Positions 21,350 through 31,121 of a stretch of DNA of 44,165 bases are shown piece after piece (the stretch's first letter is position 1; each line of letters opens with the position of its first letter). The stretch is from UHGV virus genome UHGV-1352852. One strand, written 5' to 3'. The translations under genes and the position numbers were made by a program. Below the pieces are notes generated by a model. The model worked only from the letters and a program-made list of their open reading frames with translations. It made no database searches and was not told where the DNA came from. Source of the stretch: a virus.

Positions 21350-21529
21350 TTCTTCTCTCCTGCATAAGCGGCCTTCATGGTCTGCATCGCAGCGAACCAG
21401 AACGCGTCCGCTGGAATGCTACTGCTCAGATTACTAACGGCAATGCGTGCCATCAGTTGCGCGTCTTTGAATGCTTCGATATCTGTGATTTTCATTTCTC
21501 TCTACTCCGTTCTCATTGTCGATGGAGTA

Positions 21530-21558
21530 AATATAATAGGGTCTAAGGTAATAGTCAA
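21530..21558 (-). promoter_or_regulatory. sigma70 promoter TTGACT-N17-TATATT (minus strand)
   Basis: Read on the minus strand; ~30 nt upstream of the small gene starting near 21497. Confidence 0.4.
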
Positions 21559-21580
21559 CTAGTCATTACAGAAAACAGAT

Positions 21581-21611
21581 AAAAAAAAATCCCGGCTGGG
21601 TCAGGGCCGGG
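21581..21611 (-). terminator. strong rho-independent terminator after the lysis cassette
   Basis: Minus-strand hairpin CCCGGCCCTGACCCAGCCGGG followed by a run of nine T. Confidence 0.6.
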
Positions 21612-21686
21612 ATAAAACTGGAGAGCAGATGGATGGAACAGGAGGTGATTTAAGTATCGTCGGATTAGTCTCAGGTGTCAATTGGT

Positions 21687-21714
21687 AAAATAAAACCCGG
21701 ATTCGCGGTCCGGG
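21687..21714 (-). terminator. second rho-independent terminator downstream of the endolysin gene
   Basis: Minus-strand hairpin CCCGGACCGCGAATCCGGG followed by TTTTATTTT. Confidence 0.45.
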
Positions 21715-21844
21715 TTTCGGTCATAAGCCCCTGAACCCTACGCAGTCTCCACCGCTTGGGCTGCTGCTTCGGGTTTACCGGGGCTTAGTATGCAAGCACA
21801 AGCAGCGTAGGGATAAGTTTACTAAACGCCTTCGTATTCGTCCA

Positions 21845-22330
21845 TCATTTAACAGCCCTCCCAATAGCCTCCGCCTCCTGCCACGGTTTACCGTTGAACA
21901 ATGCCAGCCGCCCGGCTGTACGGCGACGCAGGCCAAGTAGTGGTTTGCCGTTCTGGTTGATGAACAGTGCCAGCTTAGCCCGCAGTGTTGCAGTATCACC
22001 AGAACGCAGTGCCTTGCCTGTGCCCGTAGTAGACGCAATCACGCCAGCGCCAGCGTTATACACCAGGTCACACACTGCGTCGAACTGCGCCTGTGTCAGT
22101 GAATGGTGCGCCGCTGCATCAACCGCAGCTACGGCCTTAGCCATATCACGGTTCAGTAACAGGAGGCCTTGCCCCGGGGTGATGGTCTTACCTGGTGTTA
22201 CGTCTGGCCCGTAGTGACCGTAGCCTATAGTCAGGTACTTCTCATTTGGGGTAGCGCGATACGCGGTACCGCGGAATCCCTCGAACGCGGCGGTAAAATG
22301 CAATCCATTATCTGAAATGTTTCGAGACAC
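21845..22330 (-). CDS. endolysin, T4 lysozyme-like (GH24 muramidase)
   Basis: Motif FEGFRGTAYRATPNEKYLTIGYGHYG carries the GH24 catalytic Glu/Asp/Thr pattern; GTG start at ~22330 preceded by GGAGGA (track ORF runs to 22381). Confidence 0.8.
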   Translation of the reverse strand: MSRNISDNGLHFTAAFEGFRGTAYRATPNEKYLTIGYGHYGPDVTPGKTITPGQGLLLLNRDMAKAVAAVDAAAHHSLTQAQFDAVCDLVYNAGAGVIASTTGTGKALRSGDTATLRAKLALFINQNGKPLLGLRRRTAGRLALFNGKPWQEAEAIGRAVK

Positions 22331-22580
22331 GCTTATGTCCTCCGTATGACAGCCACGCCTGACGAATCTGACGCAGCGCAACTAATGTGATTAACGTCTC
22401 AGGCAGCGTTGGTGACATGCTGCTCTGTAACAGGTGTATACATCCGGCAGCACAGACGATGGCAGTCAGGATATAGAGCACCCGACCGAATAACCCGTCG
22501 TCCACGCTGGGGTGATATACATTAAACAGCGATGTGCCTCCTATTACCAGCATACCGCCGAACCAGAATAGCTCATTCAT
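22308..22580 (-). CDS. holin-like protein (two TM helices)
   Basis: Internal ATG (MNELFWFGGMLVIGG...) of track ORF 22308..22742 with GAGGAGG RBS; two hydrophobic helices; directly upstream of the endolysin. Confidence 0.5.
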   Translation of the reverse strand: MNELFWFGGMLVIGGTSLFNVYHPSVDDGLFGRVLYILTAIVCAAGCIHLLQSSMSPTLPETLITLVALRQIRQAWLSYGGHKRVSKHFR

Positions 22581-30848: not shown

Positions 30849-31121
30849 ATGATTTACCAACTCTACCGCGCCGTTGACAGGCGGGATAACACAGATGCGC
30901 TATGGCTGTTGCGTGCGCCGTCCGGTGCGCACCAGATGGAAGAGATGGCGTACTTAGGCAAAGTGCCACGGCCTAAAGACATAGGCCGCCACGTGTCACA
31001 TATTAAGCGCACGACTTTCGCCAAACCTGACTTTTATGTCTTCGAGTCGATGTATGGGTGGGCTATGCACTGCGACCATAAGACACGACATTTAATTGAC
31101 CAGTGGGAGAGCAGGGTATGA
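30849..31121 (+). CDS. hypothetical protein
   Basis: 90-aa track ORF; its stop overlaps the next start (ATGA). Confidence 0.4.
   Translation: MIYQLYRAVDRRDNTDALWLLRAPSGAHQMEEMAYLGKVPRPKDIGRHVSHIKRTTFAKPDFYVFESMYGWAMHCDHKTRHLIDQWESRV

Follow-up and report, generated by a model that had tools for sequence, protein, structure and literature searches.

A conserved promoter-to-terminator unit behind the endolysin gene of Kagunavirus and Jerseyvirus phages: a putative small RNA gene beside a decayed accessory module

The virus genome UHGV-1352852 (44,165 nucleotides; the whole stretch that was analysed is called the window) carries, behind the lysis genes on its minus strand, a non-coding interval in which a promoter, P1, and an intrinsic terminator, T2, delimit a putative small RNA (sRNA) gene. 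BLAST placed the window in the genus Kagunavirus (Guernseyvirinae), with the phages K1G, K1ind1-3 and Schulenburg as relatives. The gene order on the minus strand is two holin genes, the endolysin gene (assigned with PHROGs), about 350 nt lacking a credible open reading frame (ORF), small ORFs from the ATG at 21495, and the terminase genes. The endolysin gene ends in a TGA stop codon (21845-21847). According to the annotation of phage Jersey, the spanins of this phage group are sited elsewhere, so the lysis cassette does end at the endolysin. The conserved features and the gene preceding them are listed in window coordinates.

21653 to 21681, minus strand: promoter P1, -35 hexamer TTGACA (21676-21681), 17-nt spacer, -10 hexamer GATACT (21653-21658), 10 of 12 consensus positions
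21581 to 21646, minus strand: predicted small RNA of 66 nt, from the presumed +1 (A21646) to the end of the U9 tract
21614 to 21646, minus strand: 5' single-stranded, pyrimidine-rich region ACCUCCUGUUCCAUCCAUCUGCUCUCCAGUUUU, with CUCCU close to its 5' end and U-rich sequence directly ahead of the hairpin
21581 to 21613, minus strand: terminator T2, stem 21589-21613 (ATCCCGGC/GCCGGGAT), 9-nt loop, U9 tract 21581-21589
21496 to 21558, minus strand: near-consensus, conserved promoter P2 (TTGACT 21553-21558, 17-nt spacer, TATATT 21530-21535) and 5' leader up to the ATG at 21495
21845 to 22381, minus strand: endolysin gene (PHROG endolysin families, E 7e-47), C-terminus ...EAIGRAVK

Parts of the query are matched by 445 phage records in BLAST. 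Conservation is confined to about 21491-21681 of the window, and coverage in the relatives ends at query position 202, corresponding to window position 21681. Endolysin-anchored loci of Kagunavirus and Jerseyvirus type (IMG/VR; numbered L) were picked independently of the non-coding DNA, and all those with downstream sequence carry both P1 and T2. The alignment comprised 46 distinct sequences from the two genera, and three more Jerseyviruses were read directly. In both genera the order is TTGACA, 17 nt and (G/C)ATACT (P1, 21681-21653), about 33 pyrimidine-rich nt, UUUUAU or CUUUAU and the T2 hairpin. A U tail follows, 7-14 nt long in all 46 variants, then ATCT…, the P2 elements TTGACT, 17 nt and TATATT, the leader and the ATG. 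A preliminary description of this region had named a lack of conservation in related phages as grounds for abandoning its proposals. The upstream half, from the endolysin to P1, indeed lacks such conservation; the downstream half is conserved in both genera.

The hexamers of P1 are 100% identical between the consensus sequences of Kagunavirus and Jerseyvirus. The spacer is 59% identical and fixed in length at 17 nt. One lineage (L045/L103) has an unrelated spacer and the -10 hexamer CATACT. The -35 hexamer contains the endolysin stop codon in most endolysin-anchored Kagunaviruses (…GTGAAAGGTTGACACC…), and in the Jerseyvirus sequences read directly the stop precedes the hexamer by one base (…AAGTAGGTTGACAC…); a stop inside or next to the hexamer (AAAGGTTGACA or TAGGTTGACA) is the arrangement of most relatives. 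Insertion junctions are without exception immediately 5' to the -35 hexamer, and all upstream contexts, namely coding sequence, the module with a further terminator T1 found in the window, and other inserts, join within a few bases. From the conserved hexamers, the fixed spacing, the freely diverging spacer and the recombination boundary at the promoter edge, we infer that P1 would be a functional sigma-70-type promoter.

The transcription start was taken as the seventh nucleotide after the -10 hexamer, which gives a predicted RNA of 62-71 nt over the 46 distinct variants. Its first 31-35 nt contain 41% C, 39% U, 9% G and 10% A (80% pyrimidine), against 25% of each base in the genome, and their mean unpaired probability is 0.87 (46 variants). 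The CUCCU near the 5' end is invariant in all variants of both genera. CAUCCCUCU is identical in the two genus consensus sequences, with point variants in a few phages; the window reads CAUCCAUCU. The hairpin is preceded by UUUUAU (Kagunavirus) or CUUUAU (Jerseyvirus) and followed by the long poly-U tail, which is the layout of an Hfq-binding module. A conserved single-stranded seed, as in Hfq-dependent sRNAs, is present as well. A covariance model of the family returned one copy per genome, scoring 89 bits for the window and 70 bits for phage Jersey, and detected no paralogous copy of the P1-T2 unit in either.

Two sets of observations concern more distant relatives. In L115, the covariance model detected weak homology (28 bits) at the corresponding position. 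In the loci L114-L119 (IMG/VR, ~2000-2350), the endolysins of which are 67-79% identical, a -10-like TATAGT or TATATT stands a few bases after the endolysin stop and is TGn-extended in L114, L115 and L118. Beyond it lie 90-330 nt of non-coding DNA, falling into two sequence types, then a hairpin with U9-10 and, last, a second promoter. The P1-T2 architecture appears, as judged from these loci, to be older than the sequence family. In the six distant loci, phage Ivi and the region itself, Rfam at permissive thresholds gave sub-threshold, terminator-driven matches only.

T2 reads AUCCCGGC-CCUGACCCA-GCCGGGAU and runs into the U9 tract. Its energy is -13.8 kcal/mol (z -3.78), and none of 200 shuffles folded as well. 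Between the genera one stem pair switches from C-G to U-A (8 of 24 sequences), and Jerseyviruses have a longer stem. T2 is the sole terminator after the endolysin in most relatives. The window holds a second one upstream of P1.

21684 to 21717, minus strand: terminator T1, stem 21693-21717 (AAACCCGGA/TCCGGGTTT), 7-nt loop, tail UAUUUU

T1 reads AAACCCGGA-CCGCGAA-UCCGGGUUU followed by UAUUUU, with an energy of -14.4 kcal/mol (z -3.21; 1 of 200 shuffles as good). It is a single copy in the genome and invariant in every sequence that has it (module alignment, 8 distinct sequences). The preliminary description had placed two minus-strand intrinsic terminators after the lysis cassette, and both are present, each folding far better than its shuffles. 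T1 and T2 have what defines intrinsic (Rho-independent) terminators, a G+C-rich hairpin, a following U tract and a stability beyond that expected from composition. An automated terminator scan listed neither; the T2 loop of 9 nt exceeds the limit of that scan (8 nt). By its position, T1 would now end the lysis-gene transcript in this phage. Since T1 lies upstream of P1, T2 is redundant here as lysis-operon terminator and would be needed only for P1 transcripts or for read-through of T1. That P1-T2 stayed intact despite this redundancy argues that the unit is kept for its own sake.

P2 begins 23 nt (Kagunavirus) or 22 nt (Jerseyvirus) past the U tract and is annotated as a promoter in the phages Jersey and PVP-SE2. 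Its leader (21496-21529, minus strand) reads ACUCCAUCGACAA(C/U)GAGAACGGAGUAGAGA…AUG. It is 94% identical between the genus consensus sequences and represents the most conserved non-coding piece at the locus, above the body of the putative sRNA. Antisense within P2 and the leader, a plus-strand promoter-like site occurs at 21510-21537 (TTCTCA, 16 nt, TATAAT; 10/12). In most relatives its -35 hexamer would read TTCTCG. A transcript from this site would be antisense to the putative sRNA, and T2 has no plus-strand terminator. The site is probably a by-product of the AT-rich -10 hexamer of P2. At least four IMG/VR contigs (L040, L058, L061, L069) and the LP31 record NC_073205.1 begin within or at the poly-T run of T2 (21581-21589), probably because the assemblies of these circularly permuted genomes broke at the homopolymer. 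ARAGORN found no tRNA or tmRNA genes in the window. A replication origin at the locus was considered and rejected, the GC-skew minimum lying near 27 kb.

The upstream half of the interval has a different history. Its features are the following.

21682 to 21844, minus strand: accessory, non-conserved module of gene remnant, 3' non-coding tail and T1, present in 43 phage records, with other inserts or nothing in other phages
21822 to 21848, minus strand: mini-ORF MMDEYEGV (8 codons and stop, by translation) overlapping the endolysin stop (ATGA), remnant of a 38-codon accessory gene
21722 to 21791, minus strand: indel of about 66 nt inside the module, bounded by TAAGCCCC/GGGGCTTA, absent from Golestan-type phages that keep T1 (L023, L028)
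21805 to 21812, minus strand: 5' arm of the first long-range helix, CCCTACGC (inverted-repeat search), changed to ATCCACGC or absent in relatives, uncompensated
21736 to 21743, minus strand: 3' arm of the first long-range helix, GCGTAGGG (inverted-repeat search)

The 164 nt at 21682-21845 were found in 43 records. Kagunavirus or Escherichia phages account for 42 of these; the remaining record, from a Klebsiella phage, matches over 26 bases. The module had no match in E. coli genomes; most Kagunaviruses lack it, as do all Jerseyvirus loci that were examined. Phage M01 carries at the same place an intact 38-codon ORF, MSRREILDEMVALADRISEIVSEMESRKKAMMEENWDV (…KKAMMEENWDV before the stop), which ends in the same way as the stub in the window. 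The stub corresponds to a start codon fused to the last codons of the M01-type gene. The simplest history would be the insertion of a small accessory gene with its own terminator after the endolysin, followed by the deletion of almost the entire gene. In another version of the junction, T1 is kept and the central ~66 nt are missing.

The junction between the endolysin stop and P1 behaves as a recombination hot-spot (loci L031/L072, L035/L059, L125, L033, L050, L070, L103), with inserts ending exactly at the -35 hexamer. Different Kagunaviruses carry there a 30-codon membrane-like ORF (MTEFDFIFLAIGAGAVVGAFWGAIDAFRKG) or a 25-codon ORF (MALQEFTNPVKSRDDIDEQVGYGEG); others carry a non-coding block of about 125 nt (…GAGGGCAYYCCGGGTAYCATCACCC…GCCGGAGAATCTCTG) without a match in Rfam.

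The preliminary description had treated the interval as a structured region of about 285 bp and had pointed to a long-range complementarity. Compared with shuffles, neither the 286 nt as a whole (z -0.55) nor the 98 nt that contain the long-range repeats (z -0.94) show any folding excess. The complementarity of CCCTACGC and GCGTAGGG does exist in the window, but it is broken in relatives without compensation. Across 8 relatives the helix is paired in 73% of cells, four of the eight pairs are broken in several phages, none is compensated, and the CCCTACGC arm also occurs in phages without the GCGTAGGG arm. A second 8-bp pairing, TAAGCCCC/GGGGCTTA, joins 21780-21787 with 21724-21731. It is 100% paired in 8 sequences, with one compensatory change from C-G to U-A and several G-U pairs, and lends weak support to a structure, given the few sequences. 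The two helices interleave in the order A-B-A'-B', so they are mutually exclusive unless a pseudoknot forms. Perfect 8-mer inverted repeats are over-represented in 21682-21845 (4 against a dinucleotide-shuffle mean of 0.17; 0.3% of shuffles reach 4), and two of the four are T1 itself. What the preliminary description emphasised, tandem terminators around a structured element, is ordinary.

Enterobacterial sRNAs of the Hfq type begin with a single-stranded seed, followed by a U-rich stretch and by a terminator hairpin with a long U tail, and the P1-T2 unit is built in the same way. On balance, it is best read, with modest assurance, as an autonomous sRNA gene of about 62-71 nt (about 66 nt here), built like an Hfq-dependent sRNA and lying beside an unrelated, decayed cassette. 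Its product would be a probable phage-encoded, terminator-anchored small RNA of a kind already known. The preliminary description had considered a small RNA released between the two terminators. The region between T1 and T2 does hold the start of a putative RNA, but as the conserved P1 lies there, the RNA would be a primary transcript ending at T2 and not a fragment released between T1 and T2. In the proposed mechanism, host sigma-70 RNA polymerase would start at P1, near 21646, and transcribe about 33 nt of unstructured, 80%-pyrimidine RNA with the invariant CUCCU at its 5' end. Transcription would stop at T2, the hairpin following UUUUAU, with 7-14 U at the end of a 62-71 nt product. The Hfq-sRNA-like layout suggests a trans-acting regulator that would base-pair with purine-rich, Shine-Dalgarno-like sites of host or phage mRNAs. 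Given the anti-Shine-Dalgarno-like seed, purine-rich ribosome-binding regions would be the most likely partners. The sequences show directly the anatomy of the locus, its pattern of conservation and that the upstream half is accessory; promoter activity, the exact 5' end, Hfq dependence and targets are deductions from them.

A further-reaching proposal, rather unlikely as it stands, is that the RNAs form an undescribed sRNA family of virulent Guernseyvirinae, the anti-Shine-Dalgarno-like 5' end of which binds ribosome-binding sites broadly or acts as a decoy. The Kagunavirus 5' sequence AUCACCUCCU is identical to a stretch of 10 nt at the 3' end of the 16S rRNA of E. coli. If the proposal is true, such an RNA could reprogramme host translation or time the expression of the phage P2 operon.

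Candidate targets were sought in the phage genomes by a whole-genome duplex scan, k-mers, initiation regions and shuffled-seed controls. The sRNA blocks CUCC, CUCU and CAUC are complementary to three 4-nt blocks of the P2 leader, GGAG-U-AGAG-AA-GAUG (GGAGUAGAGAAGAUG). This complementarity is suggestive but no energetic outlier, and the leader variants do not co-vary with the sRNA variants. Phage Jersey has a similar leader before gp57 (UCUAUCGAAACGAGAGGAGCUAAGAGAUG), the best initiation-region match of the Jersey sRNA, which is likewise suggestive and not an outlier. The initiation region (31103-31120) of a 424-429 codon gene on the plus strand (31103/31118-32392) contains GGAGAGCAG, exactly complementary to CUGCUCUCC of the sRNA and covering the Shine-Dalgarno sequence; this 9-mer match is within chance expectation. 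A near-identical initiation region (ACATTTAATTGACCAGTGGGAGAACAGGGTATG) precedes gp46 of phage Jersey and ranked 4th for the Jersey RNA.

Homologues were sought beyond the phages as well. Rfam gave no match in the whole window at gathering thresholds. Below threshold, RF02278 (Betaproteobacteria toxic small RNA) came closest, scoring 25 bits where its gathering score is 50. When 185,579 genomes of bacteria and archaea were scanned for the motif, 21 matches turned up, all in unrelated taxa. By our estimate about 11 would be expected by chance, so the count lies within about two-fold of chance and indicates no enterobacterial or prophage counterpart. In the literature, no described sRNA or transcriptome was found for Kagunavirus, Jerseyvirus or Guernseyvirinae.

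Several results weigh against an sRNA function of P1-T2. None of the searches for phage targets yielded one clearly above chance. Complementary k-mers in the phage genome occur at chance level (20 9-mers against 10 +/- 5; 5 10-mers against 2.6 +/- 2.3), and duplex energies with initiation regions lie within about 1.5-1.8 sd of those of shuffled seeds for the window and within about 0.6-1.6 sd for phage Jersey. The -10 hexamer GATACT fits the consensus at 4 of 6 positions only. The 5' region is only about 50-70% identical between the genera, and the covariation in the T2 stem is probably one single evolutionary event. Promoter and terminator could also be kept for transcriptional reasons alone.

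This last point leads to the main alternative, transcriptional punctuation. T2 would be the lysis-operon terminator and an insulator before P2, P1 would be minor or incidental, and the short transcript would have no function; in a variant, P1 feeds read-through into the downstream operon or acts as a polymerase sink. Such a role fits T2 as the only terminator after the endolysin in most relatives, published annotations that mark only a terminator and P2 here, the lack of a target in the phage genomes, and a transcript body less conserved than the P2 leader. It leaves unexplained why the P1 hexamers and the 17-nt spacing are invariant next to a diverging spacer, why insertions always spare P1, even the one that brought its own terminator T1, and why, in all 46 variants, about 33 nt remain unpaired and 80% pyrimidine with an unchanging CUCCU. 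Punctuation alone is of lower probability than the sRNA gene. An antitermination leader of the lambda pR'-6S-tR' type would use the same parts differently: P1 would be the late promoter, T2 would stop transcription, and only polymerase modified by a phage factor would pass T2 and reach the genes for terminase and structural proteins. The packaging and structural genes are indeed preceded by a promoter, a strong terminator and a short transcript between them, and the lambda 6S RNA is such a product (bioRxiv 10.1101/2024.10.31.621285). However, near-consensus P2 directly follows T2 and is conserved like P1, and no Q-type antiterminator was recognised among 20 neighbouring proteins scanned. By inspection, the first transcribed bases (ACCTCCTG in Kagunavirus, GCTCCTG in Jerseyvirus) hold no conserved -10-like pause element, and the G-poor 5' region cannot form an alternative structure with T2, all of which makes antitermination improbable.

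Some GenBank records imply a small protein encoded in the P1-T2 interval. Hypothetical coding sequences (CDSs) lie over P1-T2 or the terminator in Shelanagig (gp59), Ivi (ECPH5_11) and Bas76 (Bas76_0074/0075) (L126, L125, L124), and the window has a 19-codon plus-strand ORF with GGAGA ahead of it. However, no frame is conserved on either strand, and indels of 2 nt and 4 nt separate Kagunavirus from Jerseyvirus. The plus-strand mini-ORFs have 6, 7 or 19 codons with unrelated sequences, and the frame on the minus strand, which lacks a ribosome-binding site, would use the TTG of the -35 hexamer as its start. A protein is hence hardly credible, and the hypothetical CDSs in Shelanagig, Ivi and Bas76 are probably over-calls. 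The stable 3' untranslated region (UTR) element of the preliminary description, which might take the form of a pseudoknot between the two interleaved helices of 8 bp and stabilise or regulate the endolysin mRNA, draws on the excess of 8-mer inverted repeats in the module and on the TAAGCCCC/GGGGCTTA helix, retained in 8 relatives with its one compensatory change. It is unsupported by the remaining results and quite unlikely: the module is optional and missing from most relatives, its folding energy is no better than that of shuffles, the CCCTACGC/GCGTAGGG helix breaks without compensation or covariation, its 5' arm exists where the 3' arm does not, and Rfam has no match.

The P1-T2 unit is currently unannotated or mis-annotated as a hypothetical protein. 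Regulatory sRNAs of strictly lytic phages are barely charted, most known ones coming from temperate phages and prophages. Members of both genera have been isolated widely and serve in therapy and biocontrol, and the unit is carried by 445 database records. If expressed, the unit would offer a compact, easily mutated handle on post-transcriptional control in lytic infection by these phages of E. coli and Salmonella, and would illustrate cleanly how a recombination hot-spot can leave the edge of an sRNA gene untouched. If not expressed, the locus would be ordinary operon punctuation and the 'structured region' gene debris. The value of the finding hinges on showing expression and finding a target.

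Several known systems resemble parts of the locus. Like phage 'morons', 21682-21845 is an optional small-gene cassette with its own terminator, and relatives carry other small ORFs there. Unlike in morons, the gene is almost wholly deleted, and no cassette promoter was identified in it. For the P1-T2 unit, the DapZ/MicL type of enterobacterial Hfq-dependent sRNA, which reportedly begins close to or at the 3' end of coding genes and shares the mRNA terminator (Chao et al. 2012), offers a close parallel in layout. The promoter of most relatives overlaps the end of the endolysin gene or abuts it, and the terminator is common to the upstream mRNA. The putative RNA also resembles this type in its short, single-stranded 5' seed, its U-rich stretch, its single hairpin and its long U tail; the Hfq-binding module itself was reportedly described by Ishikawa et al. 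2012. In contrast to that type, the candidate is encoded by a virulent phage, and in the window T1 uncouples the RNA from the endolysin mRNA. The RF02278 family, itself of unknown function, comprises RNAs of 57-92 nt with a UCUCC-type pyrimidine motif followed by a terminator (PMC4603805). The match to it takes in the terminator and a UCUCC motif and is driven by the terminator hairpin and the U tail, and the family belongs to a different host clade. The nearest characterised analogues of P1-T2 are the PreS (LPR1) and 6S RNAs of phage lambda. PreS, LPR2 and 6S RNA are short transcripts in lytic growth, and PreS acts via Hfq and a single-stranded seed on host mRNAs (bioRxiv 10.1101/2024.10.31.621285). 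Lambda is temperate, its sRNAs share no sequence similarity with the candidate, and its 6S RNA serves as an antitermination leader; at P1-T2, the terminator is instead followed by P2, a promoter separate from P1. Common to both are short transcripts encoded by the phage itself, predicted from the genome sequence in the case of P1-T2.

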